Position numbers and translations under genes: made by a program. A stretch of 63,307 nucleotides of DNA from the NCBI GenBank assembly GCA_964426735.1, contig CAYRRP010000004.1, forward strand, positions 25,142 through 88,448, in the 5' to 3' direction. Below, piece by piece: positions 22,956 through 63,307 of the stretch. Positions within the stretch are counted from its first letter, which is position 1, and each line of letters starts with the position of its first letter. The notes under the pieces were generated by a model. That model ran no database searches. It was given only the letters and a program-made list of their open reading frames with translations, and had not been told where the DNA came from. This stretch comes from an uncultured Candidatus Saccharibacteria bacterium. GTDB taxonomy: Bacteria; Patescibacteriota; Minisyncoccia; Phycocordibacterales; DATDWN01.

Positions 22956-24641
22956 ATGACATTGCAGACTACAATAAAACAGTGGATTGCCTCGACATTA
23001 TCAATCGATGATGATGTTGTTTTGGAGTATCCAGGGGATCTCTCTCATGGAGACTTCGCGACCAATATTGCACTTGTGTATGCAAAACAATACGGCAAAA
23101 ATCCACGTGAACTCGCGGGGGAATTTGTTGAAAAGCTTAATGCGCATAAATTACCTGAAATTGCATCGATTGAAATGGCTGGTCCTGGATTTATAAACTT
23201 CAAACTCACACCAGAGGTTTTTGGAAATGTAGTGGAAAAAATTGTCGCAGCGGGTAAAACATTTGGAAATCATACAAGGCTTAGTGGGCAAAGAGTTGTG
23301 ATCGACTATACTCAACCAAACCCATTTAAAGAATTTCATATCGGACACTTAATGAATAACATTATCGGTGAATCAATATCGCGACTTTTTGAAGCACATG
23401 GTACTGAGGTGATTCGCAGTACGTATCATGGTGATGTTGGTCTGCATGTAGCAATGGCAATCTGGGGTTTGCAAAGTATGGAGGTGGGTACAGAAATGGA
23501 TGCACATATGCTTGGTAAAGCGTATGCAACAGGAGCGAGGTTGTTTAAAGAAAGTGAGGAGGTTAAAAAAGAAATTGTTGCACTTAATAAAGTGATTTAT
23601 GATCGCAGTGATGCTGATGTAAATATGCTGTATGATACTGGACGAAAAGTGTCGCTCGATTATTTTGAATCACTCTACAAACGTCTCGGCAGTAATTTTG
23701 ATTTTCATTTTTATGAAAGTGAAACAGCACCAATCGGTAAAGCACTTGTGGAAGAATATTTAAAAACAGATGTGTTTGAAGAAAGTGAAGGAGCGGTGAT
23801 ATATCGAGGAGAAAAACATGGGTTACATACTCGTGTATTTCTTACCTCTGGTGGTATACCAGTGTATGAAGCAAAGGAGCTTGGTCTTACAGCGTTAAAG
23901 CGGGAAGCAATTGGTAATTTTGATATGTCGGTGACTATCACTGCAAATGAACAAAATGCGTTTTTTACGGTGGTTGAAAAAGCTATTGAGGATATTTTCC
24001 CGGATTTATGTGGCAGACTGTTGCATCTTTCTCATGGCATGATGAAACTTCCTGGTGGAAAAATGTCTTCGCGTACCGGTGATGTGGTTACTGCAGAAGC
24101 AATGATTGAGAGTGTAAAAGAGGCGGCAAAGATGAAAATAAAACCAGGAGTGTTCTCGCAAGCACAACAAGATGATATTGCAGAAAAAGTGGCACTCGCT
24201 GCTTTACGATATACAATCCTCCGACAATCAATCGGCGGTGATATTATTTTTGATATCAATCAGGCACTCTCACTCGAAGGGGACTCAGGTCCATATCTTC
24301 AGTATGCATCAGTGCGTGCTTCTACACTTTTGAAAAAAGCAGAGGGTCTTGTCGAAGTGTCTTCTGTTTTGCCAGAGTCTTGGCAGACAACTCATATCGA
24401 AAAGCTTCTTCAGCGTTATCCACGAATCATTGACCGTGCAGGACGTGAATATGCTCCACATCAGCTCGTTACGTATCTTACAGAGCTTGCAGGGTCTTTC
24501 AATTCGTTCTACGGGTCTCATAAAATCATTGATGCTGATGATCCTACTTCAGAATATCGCCTCGCAATTACAAAAGCATTTTTCGATGTAATGACTTCAG
24601 GCCTTCATCTCCTGGGAATCGAAATCCCTCAAGAAATGTAA
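22956..24641 (+). CDS. argS: Arginine--tRNA ligase
   Basis: Class I HIGH motif (EFHIGHLMN), an N-terminal Arg-tRNA-synthetase additional domain and a C-terminal DALR-type anticodon-binding region. Confidence 0.9.
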   Translation: MTLQTTIKQWIASTLSIDDDVVLEYPGDLSHGDFATNIALVYAKQYGKNPRELAGEFVEKLNAHKLPEIASIEMAGPGFINFKLTPEVFGNVVEKIVAAGKTFGNHTRLSGQRVVIDYTQPNPFKEFHIGHLMNNIIGESISRLFEAHGTEVIRSTYHGDVGLHVAMAIWGLQSMEVGTEMDAHMLGKAYATGARLFKESEEVKKEIVALNKVIYDRSDADVNMLYDTGRKVSLDYFESLYKRLGSNFDFHFYESETAPIGKALVEEYLKTDVFEESEGAVIYRGEKHGLHTRVFLTSGGIPVYEAKELGLTALKREAIGNFDMSVTITANEQNAFFTVVEKAIEDIFPDLCGRLLHLSHGMMKLPGGKMSSRTGDVVTAEAMIESVKEAAKMKIKPGVFSQAQQDDIAEKVALAALRYTILRQSIGGDIIFDINQALSLEGDSGPYLQYASVRASTLLKKAEGLVEVSSVLPESWQTTHIEKLLQRYPRIIDRAGREYAPHQLVTYLTELAGSFNSFYGSHKIIDADDPTSEYRLAITKAFFDVMTSGLHLLGIEIPQEM

Positions 24642-24652
24642 ATACATTTGAA

Positions 24653-24692
24653 TACATAGGGGTACCCTATGTACATAGGGTACCCCTATGTA
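24653..24692. repeat. REP palindrome pair (back-to-back, opposite orientations)
   Basis: TACATAGGGGTACCCTATGTA (24653-24673) and TACATAGGGTACCCCTATGTA (24672-24692). The same motif flanks the RAYT gene at 49.6-50.5 kb. Confidence 0.85.
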
Positions 24693-24740
24693 TTTGCTTT
24701 CTTTATAAAAACTACTGAAAATGATAGTATTGGCGTATAT

Positions 24741-27700
24741 ATGGCAGAAGATAAAGATGTAAAGCTAAAAAGTGAGACCGCACAACGAGAAGAGAGTATT
24801 CTCGATTTTTGGCAAAAAGAAAAAATATTTGAAAAGACCCTCGCAAAGGAATCTCCAAAAGGGGAGTTTGTGTTCTATGAGGGTCCACCGACTGCAAATG
24901 CAAAGCCCGCACTGCATCATCTCGAAGCACGCGCATTTAAAGATGTAATACCGCGTTTTAAAACAATGCATGGTTTTCATGTGCGACGTAAAGGAGGATG
25001 GGATACTCATGGTCTTCCGGTGGAACTTCAGATAGAAAAAAAGCTCGGACTTCAATCTAAAAAAGATATTGAAAGCTATGGTATCGAAGCATTTAATAAA
25101 GAGTGTAAGGATAGTGTATTTGAATATATCGGAGAGTGGGAAAAATTTACTGATCGTATTGGATACTGGGTAGACAAAAAGAATGCGTATTTTACGTTCA
25201 ATCCAAGTTACATGGAGTCGGTGTGGAATATTGTCAAAACAGTTGATGAGAAAAAACTTTTGTACAAAGACTACAAGGTGGTGCCGTGGTGTCCTCGTTG
25301 TGGTACTGGTCTTTCGTCACACGAGCTCGCGCAAGGGTATGAAGATGTGAAGGATCTTTCGGTGTATGTGAAATTTCATTTAAAATCGGGACAGACATTT
25401 GGAGGAGATAGAATTACTAAAGATTCTGCTTATATTGTTGCTTGGACTACAACCCCGTGGACATTACCAGGGAATGTTGGTTTGGCTGTAGGGAAAGATA
25501 TTAAATATACAGCATTGAGAGTGGGTGGTATCTCAGAACTATTGATAGTTGCTAGTGAGAGAATTTTAGATTTGTTTAAAGACCAAAAGATTGAAATAGT
25601 TCATGAGGGTATTTTTGGTTCAGATCTTATTGGTCTTTCATACGAACCGCTATTCCCATATCTTGCGGACAAATTTACTGATAAAAATCCAGAAGCGTTT
25701 CAAAAAGCATACAAAGTATATGCAGGGGATTTTGTAACTACAGAAGATGGTACGGGTATTGTGCACACTGCAGTGATGTACGGACAAGAAGATTTTGATT
25801 TAGGTACAGAGGTTGGTTTGCCAAAATTCCATCTTGTAAATCCAGACGGACATTTTCTCGACGGTATGGATTTTCTTTCAGGGCGCTTTGTAAAAGAAAA
25901 AAGTCCTGAAGGAAAGCCAACCTTGGATGTGGATATCATCAACTATCTCAAGGAACACAATCTATTTTTTGCTCAAGAAAATTACAAACACTCATATCCA
26001 CATTGTTGGCGATGTAAAACTCCACTTATATATTATGCGCGAGATTCGTGGTACATCCGTATGTCGTCTCTCCGAAAAGAACTGATGGCAGAAAATGAAG
26101 GTGTTCGTTGGGAGCCAAAACATATCAAAGAGGGTCGCTTCGGTGAGTGGCTTCGTGAGATCAAAGATTGGGCTATTTCTCGTGAGCGATACTGGGGGAC
26201 TCCGCTTCCTGTATGGACTGATCCAGAAGGGAATTATCGAGTGGTAGGGAGTGTCAATGAACTCAGAAATCTCACTCAGAAATCTGGTAATACATACACT
26301 GTCATGCGTCATGGGCAGGCGGAAAATAATACTCGTGGTATTGCAAGTACAAAAAAAGACAATCCACACCATTTGACTGACCTCGGAAAAGAACAAGTGA
26401 GAGTCTCTATAGAAGATGTTCGCGGTAGAAATATAACAAAGATTATCGCTTCACCATTTGTTCGAACACGAGAGACTGCGGAAATGGTGGCAGAAGCACT
26501 TGGTATTGCAAAAGATGTAATCATATATGATGAACGACTTGGTGAACACAATGTTGGAATATTTGATGGACAATCGATAGAAGCCTATCGTCAGTTTTGT
26601 GTAGATAATGATTATTATACCGGCAGGCCAGAAGGTGGAGAGACGGTAGGTGAAATGAAAAACCGTGTCGGAGATTTTCTCTATGAAATCGAACAGAAAT
26701 ATCAAAATGAAAATATTTTAATTGTTACTCATGAAGATCCGGCATGGATGCTTTTTGCGGTTGCTGCAGGATGTAATCAAGAAGAGACACTCAAACTCGA
26801 TCCTTCAGGATGTGAATTTATAAAAAACGCTGAGGTGCGAGTACTTAATTTTATCCCACTGCCTCATAACAGAAACTTTGAGCTTGATTTGCATCGACCG
26901 CACATCGATAATGCAATGCTTTGTAATGAAAAAGGTCAGCCACTTACTCGTGTGAAAGAAGTGATGGATGTGTGGTTTGACTCAGGTGCTATGCCGTTTG
27001 CTCAGGTCAACTATCCATTTTTAGAAGAGGGGTTGTTATATCCTGCGGATTTTATTTCTGAAGCAATTGACCAGACTCGCGGATGGTTTTATACCCTCCA
27101 TGCGATTGGAGTACTAATGGGTAAAGGTAAAGCATATAAAAATGTGATCTGCCTTGGACATATTCTCGATGCTGAGGGGAAGAAGATGTCTAAATCGATT
27201 GGAAATATTGTTAATCCAAATGAGATGATGGATCTCTATGGTGTCGATGCACTTCGTTTGTGGATGTACAGTGTAAACCAACCAGGGGATTCGAAAAACT
27301 TTGATCCATCAACAGTAGATGAGATTGTTAAAAAAGTTTTCAATCCAACTCGAAATATTCTTGCTTTTTATGAGCTTTATGCTGATGAAGATACAAAAGC
27401 ATTTACAGGAAAATCAAATCATGTTCTTGACCAGTGGATAATGAGTCGTCTCAACGAAGTAATCAGAGAGGGTACTCAATCACTCGAAAACTATCAGGTA
27501 TTTGAGTCTGCCCGCTTAATTCGTGATTTTGTCAATGATTTCTCGACGTGGTATGTACGACGCTCACGAGACAGATTTAAATCCGAAAACAAAAAAGAAA
27601 AAAATGAAGCGCTTGCAACAACTCGCTTTGTACTACAAGAACTCGTAAAATACATGGCTCCGTTTACTCCATTTTTTGCTGAAGATGTATATCGTACGCT

Positions 27701-28277
27701 TCGTCTCGATATTGATCCTGAAAGTGTTCATCTTTCCATGTGGCCACAAGGAGGTGAAGTTAATGAAAAACTTATAGCTGATATGCAAAATGTTCGAGAG
27801 ACGGTGACTCGAGTGCTTGAACTTCGTTCAAAAGCAAATATAAAAGTAAGACAACCACTTGTGTCTTTGGTGGTGAAAGAAGAGTTTGGAGAAGAGCTTC
27901 GTGCAATTATTGCTGATGAGGTGAATGTAAAAGAAGTTGCCTCGGATGCAACTATGGCAGGAGAACTCGAGCTTGATACAACACTGACTCCGGACTTGAT
28001 TGAGGAAGGAATTGCGCGAGATGTAATTCGTGCTATTCAAGATGCTCGTAAAAAAGAAAATCTAACACCGAGTCAGACCGTTACACTTTCTATATCAGGA
28101 ATCGGAACAGAATTTTTGAATCGATGGGGTGAGATGATACAAAAACCTACAGGAGTGAAAAGTATTGAGGTTGTAGATGCACAAGGGGTTCATAAGCTCA
28201 CTCTCGATAACCTCTCGATTTCATTTTCTTTAGAACTTCAAAATCTGAGTGAAGTTCTAGGCGGACAAGAAAAATAA
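24741..28277 (+). CDS. ileS: Isoleucine--tRNA ligase carrying an inserted histidine-phosphatase domain
   Basis: PPTANAKPALHHL (HIGH region), the editing domain WTTTPWTLPGN, ISRERYWGTPLPVW, and KMSKS (KKMSKSIGN). The ATG at 24741 is preferred, since the upstream 24 codons are REP sequence. Confidence 0.9.
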   Translation: MAEDKDVKLKSETAQREESILDFWQKEKIFEKTLAKESPKGEFVFYEGPPTANAKPALHHLEARAFKDVIPRFKTMHGFHVRRKGGWDTHGLPVELQIEKKLGLQSKKDIESYGIEAFNKECKDSVFEYIGEWEKFTDRIGYWVDKKNAYFTFNPSYMESVWNIVKTVDEKKLLYKDYKVVPWCPRCGTGLSSHELAQGYEDVKDLSVYVKFHLKSGQTFGGDRITKDSAYIVAWTTTPWTLPGNVGLAVGKDIKYTALRVGGISELLIVASERILDLFKDQKIEIVHEGIFGSDLIGLSYEPLFPYLADKFTDKNPEAFQKAYKVYAGDFVTTEDGTGIVHTAVMYGQEDFDLGTEVGLPKFHLVNPDGHFLDGMDFLSGRFVKEKSPEGKPTLDVDIINYLKEHNLFFAQENYKHSYPHCWRCKTPLIYYARDSWYIRMSSLRKELMAENEGVRWEPKHIKEGRFGEWLREIKDWAISRERYWGTPLPVWTDPEGNYRVVGSVNELRNLTQKSGNTYTVMRHGQAENNTRGIASTKKDNPHHLTDLGKEQVRVSIEDVRGRNITKIIASPFVRTRETAEMVAEALGIAKDVIIYDERLGEHNVGIFDGQSIEAYRQFCVDNDYYTGRPEGGETVGEMKNRVGDFLYEIEQKYQNENILIVTHEDPAWMLFAVAAGCNQEETLKLDPSGCEFIKNAEVRVLNFIPLPHNRNFELDLHRPHIDNAMLCNEKGQPLTRVKEVMDVWFDSGAMPFAQVNYPFLEEGLLYPADFISEAIDQTRGWFYTLHAIGVLMGKGKAYKNVICLGHILDAEGKKMSKSIGNIVNPNEMMDLYGVDALRLWMYSVNQPGDSKNFDPSTVDEIVKKVFNPTRNILAFYELYADEDTKAFTGKSNHVLDQWIMSRLNEVIREGTQSLENYQVFESARLIRDFVNDFSTWYVRRSRDRFKSENKKEKNEALATTRFVLQELVKYMAPFTPFFAEDVYRTLRLDIDPESVHLSMWPQGGEVNEKLIADMQNVRETVTRVLELRSKANIKVRQPLVSLVVKEEFGEELRAIIADEVNVKEVASDATMAGELELDTTLTPDLIEEGIARDVIRAIQDARKKENLTPSQTVTLSISGIGTEFLNRWGEMIQKPTGVKSIEVVDAQGVHKLTLDNLSISFSLELQNLSEVLGGQEK
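26280..26870 (+). other. Histidine phosphatase (phosphoglycerate-mutase-like) domain inserted in IleS
   Basis: TVMRHGQAENN (RHG motif), LTDLGKEQ, ASPFVRTRETA, ERLGEHNVGIFDG, LIVTHEDP. It lies between ..VGSVNELRNL and ..LDLHRPHID of the IleS body. Confidence 0.75.
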
Positions 28278-49596: not shown

Positions 49597-49650
49597 CAGA
49601 AACAAAAACCAGCAATACTTGCTGGTTTTTTTTGTTAAATAAATCTCGAA

Positions 49651-49726
49651 TACATAGGGGTACCCTATGTATTCCGCAGAAGTAGTTATCCAAAGCATAG
49701 TAGTATACATAGGGTACCCCTATGTA
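49651..49726. repeat. REP palindromes upstream of RAYT (two copies, opposite orientation)
   Basis: TACATAGGGGTACCCTATGTA (49651-49671) and TACATAGGGTACCCCTATGTA (49706-49726). Confidence 0.85.
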
Positions 49727-49749
49727 AATTTATTTGATAATCTATATAT

Positions 49750-50415
49750 ATGTCAACAAGAACACTAAATTTTTCAGTCGGGGAATTTTATCACATCTAT
49801 AATCGAGGAACAGATTCAAGAATTATATTTATAGATAATGCTGATAAAGATAGGTTTATTAAATTATTATATATTGCGAATGGTACCAAACCTTTTGTTT
49901 TTCGTGACTTTCCCATAGGGGTACCCTATGTAAATGTCGATAAAGGAGATCCTATTGTTGCTATAGGTAGCTACTGCCTGATGGATAATCATTTTCATTT
50001 GCTCTTGAAGGAGATAAGTGATGGTGGTATATCTGTATTTATGACAAAAGTACTCACAAGTTATTCGTCTTATTTTAATAAAAAATATAAGCGTACAGGC
50101 AGTTTGTTTGAAGGGACATTTAAAGCAAAACATTTGGATACTGATGAATATTTAAAATATATCTTTTCGTACATTCATCTCAATCCTGTAAAAATTATTG
50201 AACCAAATTGGAAAGAGAATGGTATAAAAGATCGTGATAAGGCTAAGAGGTATTTAAAGGAATATAAGTATTCAAGTTATCTCGAGTATCTTGGGGAGAA
50301 GCGAACAGAAAATGCAATTATTAATAAAGTTGAATTTCCAGAGTATTTTGCTGATTTTAAAGAGTTTGATCTATTTATCAATGAATGGCTTTTGTTTGGT
50401 GAATATAAAATTTAA
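49750..50415 (+). CDS. REP-associated tyrosine transposase (RAYT; IS200/Y1_Tnp-like)
   Basis: HUH motif in CLMDNHFHLLLKE and the catalytic-Tyr helix YIFSYIHLNPVK. The N-terminal FYHIYNRG is typical of the family. Confidence 0.8.
   Translation: MSTRTLNFSVGEFYHIYNRGTDSRIIFIDNADKDRFIKLLYIANGTKPFVFRDFPIGVPYVNVDKGDPIVAIGSYCLMDNHFHLLLKEISDGGISVFMTKVLTSYSSYFNKKYKRTGSLFEGTFKAKHLDTDEYLKYIFSYIHLNPVKIIEPNWKENGIKDRDKAKRYLKEYKYSSYLEYLGEKRTENAIINKVEFPEYFADFKEFDLFINEWLLFGEYKI
49914..49932. repeat. REP-like palindrome inside the RAYT coding sequence
   Basis: CATAGGGGTACCCTATGTA is in frame and encodes ..PIGVPYV.. Confidence 0.75.
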
Positions 50416-50418
50416 GTT

Positions 50419-50479
50419 TACATAGGGTACCCCTATGTAAACTTAGATAAATCTCGAATACATAGGGGTACCCTATGTA
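50419..50479. repeat. REP palindromes downstream of RAYT (two copies)
   Basis: TACATAGGGTACCCCTATGTA (50419-50439) and TACATAGGGGTACCCTATGTA (50459-50479). Confidence 0.85.
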
Positions 50480-59637: not shown

Positions 59638-60182
59638 TAGCTTCATTCGGTATGAAAAAAACATTGAATCTAAAAAGCGGCGTTTAGGAAACATGCTTAA
59701 TTGAATGTTGCCCAAATTCCGCTCTAAGCGGATTTTTTGTTCCACAGATTGACTCGATATTTGACAACTAAATCCCGCCACTTACTACTGACCAATGATG
59801 GGTCTTTTCGGGTGAGTAGGCGGACCAAATATTTTGTTACCTAAGATCAATAGATGTTAGATAACAGAGTATGAATGTAAAAATATAATTGTGGTTTTTA
59901 AATTTCCTAATGGGAAATTTAAGAGCATATGGTGGATGCCTAGACTCTAAAAGGCGATGAAAGACGCGGCATGGTGGCGATACGTTTCGGGGAGGTACCT
60001 AGCAACCTTTGATCCGGAAATCTCTGAATGGGGGAACCCAACAGCTTTTGCTGTTACTCTGCAAATTATGCAGAGCGCACACCCAGGGAAGTAAAACATT
60101 CCAGTACCTGGAGGAAAAGAAAACAATGTTCGTAAGAACGATATTTCGTTAGTAGCGGCGAGCGAACACGAAAGAGCCCAAA

Positions 60183-60394
60183 CCGATGCATCACAGTGTG
60201 TAAAATATTTTTGTTTTGAATGGTCCGAGTGAGGAATACCTGTTATGAAAAGGGAGAAGGCCATCCCTGTGTAATGACAAAGCTCCTGCAGAGCTGGTGT
60301 TCCTCGCTCGGTCCACGGAAGTTCTTTCTGTGGCCGATTTTAAAATCGGTTTACCATTCAGTACGAAAATATTTTATATAGCGTGATGCATCGG
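60183..60394 (+). other. 23S insertion 1: helix-9 intervening sequence (~188 nt inside a 12-bp stem)
   Basis: CCGATGCATCAC (60183-60194) pairs with GTGATGCATCGG (60383-60394), between the conserved GCCCAAA and GGTTGTAAGG. The interior has nested stems. Confidence 0.8.
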
Positions 60395-60604
60395 GGTTGT
60401 AAGGCAACAACGTCAAATTTATTTGAGAGAAGTCAAAAAATAGTATGTTAATGGAATGCGCTGGAAAGCGCGACCCCAGAGGGTAATAGTCCCGTACATG
60501 AAAATCTACTATCTTCTTTGTTGTTGTTCTTGAGTACCTCGAGACATGAATAGCTCGGGGGAATCTGCCAGTACTAACTGGTAAGGCTAAATACTTTTAG
60601 AGAT

Positions 60605-60643
<39 letters not shown>

Positions 60644-60698
60644 GTCCGAGAGGACGGTGAAATAGACCTGAAACCATATGCTTACAAGGAGTCGGAGC

Positions 60699-60827
60699 GG
60701 GGGCATCACATGGAATGTGATGCAGTTTTTAGTCATTAGTCATAAGTCAACAGTAGATGCAAATGCATTTTACTGATGACTGTTAACTGTGAACTATTGA
60801 CTGCATCGCGCTTCGCGTGATGCTTCC
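60699..60827 (+). other. 23S insertion 2: helix-25 intervening sequence carrying repeat element rIE copy 1
   Basis: Inserted between CAAGGAGTCGGAGC and GTCACGGCGTGCC. The segment 60704-60822 is about 85% identical to 62413-62532. Confidence 0.8.
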
Positions 60828-61467
60828 GTCACGGCGTGCCTATTGAAGAATGAGCCAACGAGTTGATGGATGCAGCAAGGCTAAGCCCTTTACCGGGCGG
60901 AGTCGTAGGGAAACCGAGTGTGAATAGCGCGTTAAGTTGTATGCATCAGACCCGAAGCCAGAGCGAGCTTACCATGAGCAGGGTGAACTTTGTCGAAAGA
61001 TGAAGGGAGGCCCGAACAGTTTAGCCGTGCAATACTATCTGATGACTTGTGGTAAGAAGTGAAAAGCTAATCGAGCCTGGTAATAGCTGGTTCTCTCCGA
61101 AATAGCTTTTGGGCTAGCGTTAGATGATCCCTTCCGGGGTAGAGCACTGGAAGGACTCGACAGGGAGAAATCTCGCGAGTCCTATCAAACTCCGAATACG
61201 GAAGATTACAGTCTAGCAGTTAGACGGCGGGGGCTAAGCTCCGTACGTCAAAAGGGAAACAGCCCTGATCTCTATTTAAGGTCCCTAAATCTATGTTAAG
61301 TACACGTAAGGTGGTGGATTTTCTCAGACACTGAGGAGGTTGGCTTAGAAGCAGCCATCCTTTAAAGAAAGCGTAACAGCTCACTCAGTAAGAGAATCTG
61401 CGCCGCAAATAATCGGGGTTAAACATGGTACCGAAACTGAGGGTTTGTAGACTTCATCAAGAAAAAA

Positions 61468-61579
61468 TTCCAAAATTGGCGAATTTCATCTTTTTGATTT
61501 TTAAAATACTCGTCACCGTACGTCAGTACGGCTTCTCGTATTTTAAAAATCAAAAAGCGAACTTCATCCAATTTTGAAA
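61468..61579 (+). repeat. Dispersed ~115-nt hairpin repeat, copy G, inside the 23S H45 insertion
   Basis: TTCCAAAATTGG-CGAATTTCAT..TCGTCACCGTACGTCAGTACGGCTTCTC..CGAACTTCATCCAATTTTGAAA. Confidence 0.8.
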
Positions 61580-61602
61580 TTTTATAAAATGTTTTTTAAT
61601 GC

Positions 61603-61677
61603 GCATCGGTCGTCTAATGGTTAGGACATCGGACTCTTAATCCGAAAATTGGGGTTCGAGTCCCTGCTGATGCGCCA
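61603..61677 (+). tRNA. tRNA-Lys (anticodon CTT), CCA encoded, nested in the 23S insertion
   Basis: Acceptor GCATCGG/CTGATGC (one G-U pair), U8, 3-bp D stem GTC/GAC, anticodon stem TCGGA/TCCGA with loop CTCTTAA, T arm TGGGG-TTCGAGT-CCCTG, discriminator G, CCA. Confidence 0.8.
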
Positions 61678-61722
61678 CTCCAATTTTTGGAGTGAATGTT
61701 CTTTAATTTGTGTCCAAAATGT

Positions 61723-61799
61723 GGACGTGTAGCTCAGCCTGGTAGAGCGGTGCGCTGAAAACGCATATGTCGGGGGTTCGATTCCCTCCACGTCCACCA
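61723..61799 (+). tRNA. tRNA-Phe (anticodon GAA), CCA encoded, nested in the 23S insertion
   Basis: Acceptor GGACGTG/CACGTCC, D arm TAGCTCAGCCTGGTAGAGC, anticodon loop CTGAAAA, T arm GGGGG-TTCGATT-CCCTC, ACCA. Confidence 0.88.
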
Positions 61800-62410
61800 C
61801 TCTCTTTCAGAGAGTGGTACACAAATTTTTTCTTTCGATTTTTTAAAATCGAATTCTTGATGAAGTCTACAAGCGGTAGGAGAGTATTCGTATCTGCGCT
61901 GAAGCCAAAGGGGTGACCCATGGTGGAGCGATGCGAAGTAAGAATGTTGGCACAAGTAACCACAATGCAGGTGAAATCCCTGCACGCCGAAAGACTAAGG
62001 TTTCCTGTTCAATGTTAATCAGAGCAGGGTTAGTCGGGCCTAAGGAAATGGAGAGATCCGCATCCGATGGACATAGGGTTAATATTCCCTAACTTTTGTG
62101 TAATGCGATGGAAGGACGGAGTGCTGTATATAGGGCTCATTATTGGATTTGAGTCACTGCCGTGAGATTGTGTTCCAGGTAAATCCGGACACTCACTTAA
62201 ATGTGGAATTCGAGCGGTTGCGAAACCTTGAGATTCGTCAAGAGGGATCCTATAAAGCGCGCTTCCAAGAAAAGTTTCTAAGCTTAAGTACACAAGAACC
62301 GTACCGTAAACCGACACAGGTAGTCAGGTCGAGTAGACCAAGGCGAACGAGTGAGAGATCCCCAAGGAACTCGGCAAAAAAGCAGCCGTAACTTCGGAAT
62401 AAGGCTTGCC

Positions 62411-62535
62411 CCCATCACATGGAATGTGATGGTGGTCATAAGTAGACAGTCATAAGTCAACAGAAAATGCATATGCATTTTACTAATGACTATTGACTGT
62501 GAACTGTTGACTTCATCGCGCTTCGCGTGATGGGG
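62411..62535 (+). other. 23S insertion 4: helix-63 intervening sequence carrying repeat element rIE copy 2
   Basis: Inserted between CGGAATAAGGCTTG and CGCAGCTAAAG..GGCAACTGTTTATCAAAAACACAG. The closing stem is CCCCCATCAC / GTGATGGGGG. Confidence 0.8.
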
Positions 62536-62688
62536 GCCGCAGCTAAAGTATTTCTGGCAACTGTTTATCAAAAACACAGCTCCCTGCGAACTCGCAAGAG
62601 GATGTATAGGGGGTGACACCTGACCAATGCCAGAAGGTCAAATATGGGAGGTGATGTCGCAAGACTGAGCTTGACTGTATAAGCCCTG

Positions 62689-62723
<35 letters not shown>

Positions 62724-62967
62724 TGTGCGAACGAATCATATCGTGCGCACAAGGACTGGGACTGTTGTAGTTCTGTTGATACAATAAAATGTTCAATTTT
62801 ATTTATTGGCATTTTGATAAACTAACTAAACAATAATCATTACATTTCTAGCTACCTATCATGCCGTAATGCATGAATAGTCCAACGTGATTGACGAGAG
62901 ACCAACGTCACGGACCCGAAACTTGCAAAGTTGGGTTAAGAGAGAGTCCAACGGAGAGGAATCGTTG
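62724..62967 (+). other. 23S insertion 5: candidate ORF-less group I intron at about E. coli position 1931
   Basis: It interrupts GGTCCTAAGGT | AGCGAAATTCC. The upstream exon ends in T(U) and the insert ends in G. It contains an AAGAGAGAGTCC (J8/7-P7-like) segment and a duplicated AGTCCAACG. No ORF is present. Confidence 0.45.
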
Positions 62968-63307
62968 AGCGAAATTCCTTGTCGGGTAAGTTCCGACGCG
63001 CACGAATGGTGTAATGACTGGAAAACTGTCTCGGGGATTTGCTCGGTGAAAATACAATACCGGTGAAGATGCCGGTTACCTGCAGTTAGACGAAAAGACC
63101 CCAGGAGCTTTACTGCATCTTGATATTGAGAATATGACTTGCATGCGTAGCATAGTGGTGAGGATTTGAAGGGCACTTCCGGGTAGCCTGGATCCGTCAG
63201 TGAAATAGCCATCTTGTTTGTTATATTTTCTAACCTCGGCGGAAAAAACGACGAGAGACAGTGTCTGGTGGGCAGTTTTAGTGGGGCGCTATCCTCCTAA
63301 AAAGTAA

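Follow-up and report, generated by a model that had tools for sequence, protein, structure and literature searches.

The stretch of DNA analysed here (63,307 nt of contig CAYRRP010000004.1, from an uncultured Candidatus Saccharibacteria bacterium; hereafter, the window) contains a gene for a transposase of the kind associated with repetitive extragenic palindromes (REPs), the REP-associated tyrosine transposases (RAYTs). Copies of a short palindrome flank the gene on both sides, and a further copy lies in frame within it. The in-gene copy changes in concert with the REPs that flank the gene or are dispersed, in both stem and loop, including a synonymous change from GTA to GTC. We consider the locus, with a probability of about 75%, to be a REPtron, in which a resident, single-copy class-2 RAYT is set among its cognate inverted REP doublets and carries a co-evolving in-gene REP. 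A RAYT/REP system had been proposed in a sequence-only reading of the window; the analysis supported this interpretation, and none of the findings that the reading had named as refuting it (no Y1_Tnp match, a palindrome confined to the locus, or a complete IS200/IS605 element) was obtained.

The 17-nt core CATAGGGGTACCCTATG is present as seven exact copies in the window, against 0.00 expected from 100 dinucleotide-preserving shuffles of the window. Each REP unit consists of a perfect 9-bp stem, TACATAGGG/CCCTATGTA, and a 3-nt loop that reads GTA or TAC according to orientation. The gene and the REP copies were located as follows, with the basis for each assignment in brackets:

49750-50415, plus strand: RAYT-type HUH/Y1 gene encoding 221 aa (Pfam Y1_Tnp, invariant motifs, AlphaFold model, fold match)
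49914-49930, plus strand: in-gene REP core with a GTA loop, in frame, codons 55-61
49641-49650, plus strand: 10-nt flank AAATCTCGAA before the distal upstream REP (read directly)
49651-49671, plus strand: REP with a GTA loop, TACATAGGG-GTA-CCCTATGTA (repeat count, folding)
49706-49726, minus strand: REP with a TAC loop, 24 nt 5' of the ATG (repeat count, folding)
50419-50439, minus strand: REP with a TAC loop (repeat count)
50449-50479, plus strand: AAATCTCGAA followed by a REP with a GTA loop, the REP being 50459-50479 (repeat count, folding)
24651-24694: dispersed REP doublet, 24653-24673 (plus, GTA) abutting 24672-24692 (minus, TAC) (repeat count, folding)
CATAGGGGTACCCTATG core starts near the gene: 49653 (plus) and 49708 (minus) upstream of the open reading frame (ORF), 50421 (minus) and 50461 (plus) downstream
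CATAGGGGTACCCTATG core start inside the ORF: 49914 (plus)
CATAGGGGTACCCTATG core starts in the distant doublet: 24655 (plus) and 24674 (minus)

The four flanking copies, which the sequence-only reading had placed at 49651, 49706, 50419 and 50459 in both orientations, were confirmed at all of these coordinates, as was the back-to-back doublet at 24653-24692, 25 kb away. That inventory was right for these six copies and had overlooked the seventh, in the ORF. The palindrome had been described as imperfect over 21 nt; its stem is perfect, and the term applies only to the odd, asymmetric centre. The flanks had been described as shared, and this held in part: AAATCTCGAA is common to both plus-strand copies (49641-49650 and 50449-50458), and not to all four. 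With the flank included, 49641-49671 is a 31-nt direct repeat of 50449-50479. The palindrome at 49651-49671 reaches to 49648-49674 (12-bp stem; fold of -9.7 kcal/mol, z = -6.0) and pairs with 49706-49726 to give a long, 22-bp hairpin resembling a REPIN (REP doublet forming a hairpin). The REP at 50419-50439 lies within an extended palindrome with a 15-bp stem (50413-50445), which takes in the stop codon TAA (50413-50415), and pairs with 50459-50479 to give a REPIN-like hairpin of 26 bp (-27.1 kcal/mol, z = -11.3). The distant doublet is a palindrome with a 20-bp stem. As single-stranded DNA, the three REP pairs fold into long REPIN-type hairpins of -20.7, -27.1 and -20.6 kcal/mol (z = -6.8 to -11.3).

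The in-gene copy falls in codons 55-61 (49912-49932; CCC ATA GGG GTA CCC TAT GTA, encoding PIGVPYV). It lies within the segment of aa 43-69, a loop in the AlphaFold (AF2) model between helix aA (aa 30-42) and strand b2 (aa 70-77), and the Pfam Y1_Tnp match (aa 71-143) stops short of this segment. The relation between gene and flanks was analysed in a homolog set of approximately 160 loci from Patescibacteria metagenome-assembled genomes (MAGs), with proteins 39-81% identical to the window protein, which was also scanned de novo for hairpins. In a comparison that presumes no hairpin, an exact 14-mer was common to the gene interior and its own flanks in 56 of 162 loci, nearly all at aa 50-64 or 85-99, and the shuffled-partner control gave almost nothing. 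The 7-nt inner stem arm in the gene matched the arm in its own flanks in 39 of 54 loci, compared with 5.3% of between-locus pairs, over more than 25 different stems. The loop was the same or reverse-complementary between gene and flank in 36 of 39 loci, against 31% for other loci of the same stem.

The loop of the in-gene copy corresponds to codon 58, and the flanking or nearby REPs of each close locus all carry the triplet found there or its complement. The codon was as follows in the window and in three relatives (identity to the window protein in brackets):

Window (100%): GTA (Val)
L297 (70%): GTA (Val)
L300 (81%): GTC (Val, a synonymous change)
L298 (72%): TTA (Leu)

The stem codons ATA GGG and CCC TAT (codons 56, 57, 59 and 60) were identical in five of five close genes; elsewhere in these genes, the codon was kept in 18 of 105 columns with an identical residue. 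A codon palindrome at residue 56, in which codons 56 and 60 are reverse complements of each other, as are codons 57 and 59, was present in 33 of 155 loci, with the residue pairs Q/L (25 loci), I/Y (4) and E/F (3). Which residue stands next but one depends on the last base of the Gly codon, with GGT followed by Thr, GGG by Pro, GGA by Ser and GGC by Ala. Because the paired codons are reverse complements, the residue pairs are dictated by the palindromy of the DNA. An origin of the in-gene copy in conservation of the peptide was ruled out by the frozen synonymous sites, the extragenic mirroring of the loop codon and the reverse-complement codon pairs.

The in-gene copy could be passive, that is, an old in-frame insertion in a permissive surface loop, kept alike through local conversion or re-insertion in cis and without a role, an explanation that we judge to fall somewhat short of even odds. 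In-frame REPs inside tnpA_REP of subclass 2.4, and some in subclass 2.8, have been read as tolerated peripheral-loop insertions (Quentin, Siguier, Chandler and Fichant 2018, PMC6006769), and in-frame REPs in other genes have been listed by Di Nocera et al. 2013 (PMC3733652). The position of the segment in a model loop agrees with such tolerance, as do the absence of a perfect flank-matching copy from most family members and the loop differences at some loci (both detailed below). The members with the hairpin at aa ~90 form a separate subclade with variable insertions of ~7 aa directly behind the HuH strand; these have the look of true insertions and also fit a passive copy. The aa ~55 segment is different in that its length is constant throughout the family, and its hairpin stays in a single codon phase over proteins that are 43-100% identical; given the constant length, the aa ~55 hairpin sits in an ancestral segment. 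The synonymous sites of the stem are frozen while the remaining gene drifts, and in-gene REPs were acquired on at least three separate occasions (at aa ~55, at aa ~90 and in subclass 2.4), which likewise speaks against a purely passive copy. These contrary points fit selection and conversion equally well.

A stronger form, in which the in-gene palindrome would be a selected part of the system, is doubtful and is put forward tentatively. The palindrome might be a durable 'germline' template that re-seeds short-lived extragenic REPs, an operator that limits expression of its own gene, or both. The single codon phase and the independent acquisition in at least three lineages were counted for a selected function, and the lack of the in-gene copy, by strict criteria, in most family members was counted against it. 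Were it true, the gene would carry the specificity determinant of its own substrate, as a copy shielded by purifying selection, and five residues would be set by DNA palindromy and not by protein function.

The REPtron interpretation is consistent with the properties of the protein. Both motifs named in the sequence-only reading, NHFHLL for the HUH motif and YIHLNP for the catalytic tyrosine, were confirmed in the translation of ORF 49750-50415; the HUH motif is N80-H81-F82-H83, the catalytic tyrosine is Y141 in YIHLNP (aa 141-146), and the C-terminal tail contains YSSY. The Pfam search returned PF01797 (Y1_Tnp) at 29.3 bits, above the gathering score of 23, with the match covering aa 71-143 only. 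H81, H83 and Y141 were unvarying across an alignment of 62 homologs. The AF2 model of the protein is confident (pLDDT 88, pTM 0.87), and its top Foldseek match in the PDB was 4ER8, the E. coli RAYT with a REP hairpin (E = 3.5e-6, TM(target) 0.65), which outranked the transposases of IS608 and ISDra2. The search for homologs gave more than 7,900 clusters, almost all of 215-235 aa; those with a source name were labelled as Patescibacteria lineages, and a few had been called RayT by JGI. The motifs fit class 2 and point, in a comparison of motifs by eye only, to a correspondence of the window protein with subclass 2.1.

Across the family, a perfect hairpin of at least 8 bp was found within 130 nt upstream of the gene in 124 of 161 loci and downstream in 98, with the same stem on both sides in 60. 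In most loci, a perfect stem of 8-12 bp or more with a loop of 3-5 nt lies 40-65 nt 5' of the start; the same stem recurs no more than ~35 nt from the stop, and inverted doublets are frequent. The hairpin sequence is locus-specific, with more than 25 stem types over the ~160 loci, and GGTACC is missing from most of them. Two loci, L027 (~225 to 50 nt upstream) and L091 (~262 to 68 nt upstream), have four hairpin copies at a spacing of ~55-75 nt in place of a single doublet. Homologs with 40-45% identity and the same arrangement of gene and flanking hairpins were also present in MAGs labelled, as given, Omnitrophota (L101) and Gammaproteobacteria (L103); the family may thus extend beyond Patescibacteria. 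A comparison of L002 with L018 as an orthologous site with a flipped loop was dropped because one is the reverse complement of the other.

The same comparisons bear on whether the locus is an ordinary autonomous insertion sequence (IS) of the IS200/IS605 type. The hairpins would then be its subterminal ends, the whole 0.8-kb unit would move, and the distant doublet would be a derivative resembling a palindrome-associated transposable element (PATE) or a MITE (a miniature transposable element with inverted repeats). We regard this as very unlikely. Hairpins do stand at both ends of a Y1_Tnp gene, and the 31-nt direct repeat brackets the unit; however, each end has hairpins in both orientations, and tnpB is absent. 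The low REP copy number and the AT-richness of the gene (both given below) would suit an IS, as would the two homologs found in some MAGs. In the ten MAGs concerned, the paralogs are 42-70% identical and have a separate, different hairpin each, whereas IS200 copies are ~99% identical within a genome (PMC6006769). The motif YIHLNP is of the Y---NP type of class 2 and not the Y---Q of TnpA_IS200 (PMC6006769, Table 1), the protein is 221 aa long with a C-terminal tail and not a ~150-aa core, and the top fold match is a RAYT and not IS608. In L298, whose protein is 72% identical, the gene occupies the same site, preceded by genes for a large PG_binding protein and for a TPR protein (PG_binding-TPR-RAYT synteny); since this synteny is kept at 72% identity, the RAYT gene stayed in place while diverging. 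The possibility of a complete IS200/IS605 element, raised in the sequence-only reading, was thus not borne out, and sequence comparison supports RAYT/REPtron rather than IS behaviour for the gene and its REPs. The copy-number and conserved-site tests refer to relatives of the source genome. Within the 63-kb window, the RAYT gene is present in one copy.

The palindrome is not restricted to the RAYT locus, as the distant doublet and its occurrence in other MAGs show. The exact 19-mer of the window REP was found in 23 stretches of public genomes, all Patescibacteria MAGs, and 17 of these have no RAYT homolog in the same stretch. In several cases, it was present on separate contigs of one MAG, with up to four contigs in a single MAG. 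The sites are mostly single intergenic hairpins whose stems run 2-16 bp past the core in site-specific sequence, as would be expected for collapsed doublets. Neither the REP 19-mer nor a homolog of the protein was found in viral contigs, and a phage-borne origin was dropped on both counts. A genome count of the 'CATAGG' REP group by the pattern ACATAGGNNNNNCCTATGT was not used; its 14 fixed bases give thousands of chance matches in 596 Gb, and the matches listed were mostly from outside the candidate phyla radiation (CPR).

The dispersed doublet in the window begins ~10 nt past the stop codon of argS (24639-24641) and lies ~50 nt before the likely start of a synthetase gene (24741). It had been placed between argS and ileS. 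The argS assignment was confirmed by the ArgRS domains, and ileS is plausible only, as the product is a class-I synthetase of the Ile/Val/Leu/Met type with a DUF5915 C-terminal domain of the kind found in IleRS. The synthetase ORF called by the program begins at an ATG at 24669, within the doublet; the likely true start is 24741. Two ArgS relatives from metagenomes, L301 and L303 (82-83% identical), have another downstream gene and another hairpin, and L302 (60%) has no hairpin. The hairpin in L301 (~1925-1955) and L303 (~1307-1337) is REP-like, AATTCCCCTAG-GGTAACT-CTAGGGGAATT, and lies ~70 nt past the argS stop; hairpins of its 'CCTAGG' type also stand beside the RAYT homologs L074 and L135.

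The position of the doublet directly past the argS stop is also what might be seen if the hairpins had a regulatory or structural part in the host (as terminators, as stabilisers of mRNA, or as sites for another DNA-binding protein or a GGTACC restriction-modification system) with no relation to the activity of the neighbouring protein. This is the least probable of the explanations weighed here, and we give it very little credence. REPs elsewhere serve as terminators or stabilisers after genes (PMC3733652), and three of the hairpins were terminator-like on one strand or the other in a consensus scan; yet no sense-strand T-runs follow the REPs, except weakly at 49706, and the upstream gene has a canonical terminator of its own (49604-49630). 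The hairpin also co-varies with the adjacent Y1 gene over the ~160 loci and more than 25 stem types, and one copy lies inside the gene. The idea that the palindrome stands for a KpnI-type restriction site (GGTACC) was ruled out because most family hairpins are without it.

Several results weigh against the REPtron interpretation or its co-evolving in-gene copy. By strict criteria, 117 of 155 loci have no flank-matching in-gene hairpin, and the hairpin is therefore dispensable. In L027 and L118, the in-gene loop is unlike most flanking copies; because of these differences, the in-gene copy is not simply the master. Exact REP cores number ~1-5 per MAG, which is low by REP standards, and the 63-kb window has one distant REP locus. 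A filled/empty pair for the argS doublet was sought among four ArgS relatives, with no clean pair and no REP insertion polymorphism found. On inspection of the 5' foot, the window REP, (G)AATACATAGGG-GTA-CCCTATGTATT(C), has no GTAG or GTGG 5' of the stem. A search of the PDB with the family sequence profile gave no relative at E <= 1, so that the link to 4ER8 rests on the comparison of folds. The NCBIfam equivalog NF047646 (REP_Tyr_transpos) scored 32.8 bits and did not reach its cut-off of 80; on this score, the window protein is a homolog and not an equivalog of the curated proteobacterial RAYT family. Lastly, the RAYT gene is markedly AT-richer than its surroundings (GC content of 30.0%, compared with 39.3% for the whole window).

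Among the closest known systems is the E. coli REPtron (rayT/yafM, TnpA_REP, 4ER8, subclass 2.2), which shares with the window locus the Y1 fold with HUH and Tyr, the Y...NP motif, the inverted REP pairs around the gene and the REPs elsewhere. The window protein has no detectable sequence similarity to 4ER8 and differs from the E. coli RAYT in an extra segment of ~27 aa between aA and b2 and a C-terminal tail of ~75 aa. The E. coli REPs are longer, bulged and GTAG-tagged, whereas the window REP is short, with a perfect 9-bp stem, a 3-nt loop and no GTAG. E. coli has hundreds of REP copies, and the window lineage apparently a handful. The E. coli rayT gene is without an in-gene REP, unlike the window gene, and had no 10-mer in common with its own REP-rich flanks. 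The Pseudomonas REPIN-RAYT systems (groups 2 and 3), reportedly described by Bertels and Rainey in 2011, are alike in that inverted doublets are the repeat unit, the RAYT is single-copy and vertically inherited, and paralogs each have their own repeat. They differ in RAYT subclass, in REP architecture and in having hundreds of REPINs per genome rather than very few, and we know of no in-gene REP copy described for them. HUH initiators with a nick site inside their own gene include phiX174 gene A and pT181 repC, at phage and plasmid replication origins. The own-gene site is a likeness to the window gene, whose site by contrast belongs to a repeat family dispersed over the chromosome; the analogy serves only as a lead.

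Among the published subclasses, subclass 2.4 (Bertels group 4; cyanobacteria and Bacteroidetes) resembles the window family in having a cognate REP in the RAYT gene, in a peripheral loop and with the frame intact, and the position of that REP, past the HuH strand, is also that of the REP in the aa ~90 subclade. The window gene and most of its family instead have the hairpin before HuH (aa 80-83), in one constant codon phase and within a segment that no member lacks. The window REPs are also short and without a GT[AG]G foot, and the motifs are NHFH and YIHLNP, of the subclass 2.1 type, compared with NH[IFV]H and YIxNNP in subclass 2.4. Nucleotide-level concerted evolution between in-gene and extragenic copies is not reported for subclass 2.4 in the main text of PMC6006769. 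Subclass 2.1 (Bertels group 1, TIRYT) shares with the window protein NH[YF]H, F-x in place of WQ (F-E in the window), Y[IV]HLNP, the 'SS' proximal tail and a length of ~220-240 aa. This subclass is described as lacking REP-like sequences close to the gene, where only some cases show terminal inverted repeats, and as having domains at the C terminus that resemble a helix-turn-helix (HTH) (PMC6006769). The window family, in contrast, has flanking REP hairpins family-wide, and a Pfam scan of the window protein gave no HTH domain at E <= 1. Quentin et al. 2018 (PMC6006769) also allow atypical REPs in subclasses 2.6 and 3. IS200/IS608 (subclass 1.1) has in common with the locus the catalytic fold and subterminal hairpins on single-stranded DNA; it differs in its Y...Q motif, its length of ~150 aa, its multicopy, near-identical elements and its defined, asymmetric left and right ends (LE/RE), none of which was found here. 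In the searchable literature, we found no description of REP/RAYT systems for CPR bacteria, no REPs reported for a 2.1-like RAYT, no in-gene REP that lies upstream of HuH in a constant codon phase and no nucleotide-level concerted evolution between in-gene and extragenic REP copies.

For the REPtron interpretation, we infer by analogy with E. coli TnpA_REP and IS608 TnpA that the 221-aa protein would bind and cleave the hairpin. The 9-bp stem and 3-nt loop would be bound when extruded on single-stranded DNA, and a nick beside the hairpin through Tyr141 and an HUH-bound metal, followed by rejoining, would allow REP units to be copied or replaced. At least one REP doublet would have been seeded elsewhere in the chromosome in this way. 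The in-gene copy (codons 56-60) would belong to the same evolving REP population as the flanking and dispersed copies, and the copy-and-replace process that homogenises the REPs would act on it as well. The lock-step change, even at a synonymous site, requires DNA-level copying among in-gene, flanking and dispersed copies; the agent may be the RAYT itself, acting best in cis, or local gene conversion, in either direction. If the homogenising process is shared, the in-gene copy is therefore a predicted binding or cleavage site of the enzyme, and it could plausibly serve to limit RAYT expression.

REP/RAYT systems are a standard example of a domesticated transposase that coexists with non-autonomous repeats, and they raise the questions of how enzyme and repeat are kept matched in the long term and of what the enzyme does. 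Patescibacteria/CPR have genomes of ~1 Mb that are thought to be poor in repetitive DNA. As an in-gene REP has a published precedent in subclass 2.4, the advance made here is one of degree and resolution and not of kind. What is new, and supported by the data, is a probable CPR REPtron whose RAYT resembles a subclass reported as REP-less, with short, GTAG-less, low-copy REPs and a conserved, co-evolving in-gene REP. REPtrons are thereby extended to Patescibacteria/CPR and to a 2.1-like RAYT subclass reported as REP-free, with a large natural data set (the >7,900 homolog clusters, of which the ~160 loci were examined) in which the REPs are perfect, short and specific to their locus. Through the in-gene copy, RAYT-REP co-evolution and the concerted evolution of REPs become readable from sequence and testable through five codons, which should be of interest to specialists in HUH transposases and REPINs.

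Other features of the window were also noted. The Ile-type class-I synthetase downstream of the dispersed doublet (24741-28277, 1178 aa) has a His_Phos_1 domain (Pfam, 104 bits) inserted at aa 521-688, and this histidine-phosphatase insertion splits the synthetase catalytic domain into two halves. A 23S rRNA gene at 59909-63307 is interrupted, with 59909-61600 corresponding to positions 1-1225 of the Rfam large-subunit (LSU) model and 61800-63307 to positions 1215-2300; each half is ~400 nt longer than its Rfam model span. Between the halves, and so inside the intervening sequence, tRNA-Lys(CTT) (61603-61677) and tRNA-Phe(GAA) (61723-61799) are encoded on the same strand. No 16S gene was found upstream of the 23S gene in the window. 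Insertions in 23S genes are common in CPR bacteria. Together with the Patescibacteria labels of the closest homologs that have a source name, and with the restriction of the exact REP 19-mer to Patescibacteria MAGs, they point, short of proof, to a CPR identity of the source. A hairpin with a 9-bp stem, (g/c)catcacatGGAatgtgatg(c/g), is present once in each 23S half (60703-60723 and 62412-62432). At the left edge of the window, a direct repeat of ~57 nt (CGTGGGCCGGAGGAAATCTCAATTCGACGGAATTGAGATTATCCAAAGGCACAAA...) occurs in two copies (1-58 and 130-187) with a period of 129 nt and contains a hairpin with an 11-bp stem; further copies may lie to the left of the window edge, where the first copy starts.

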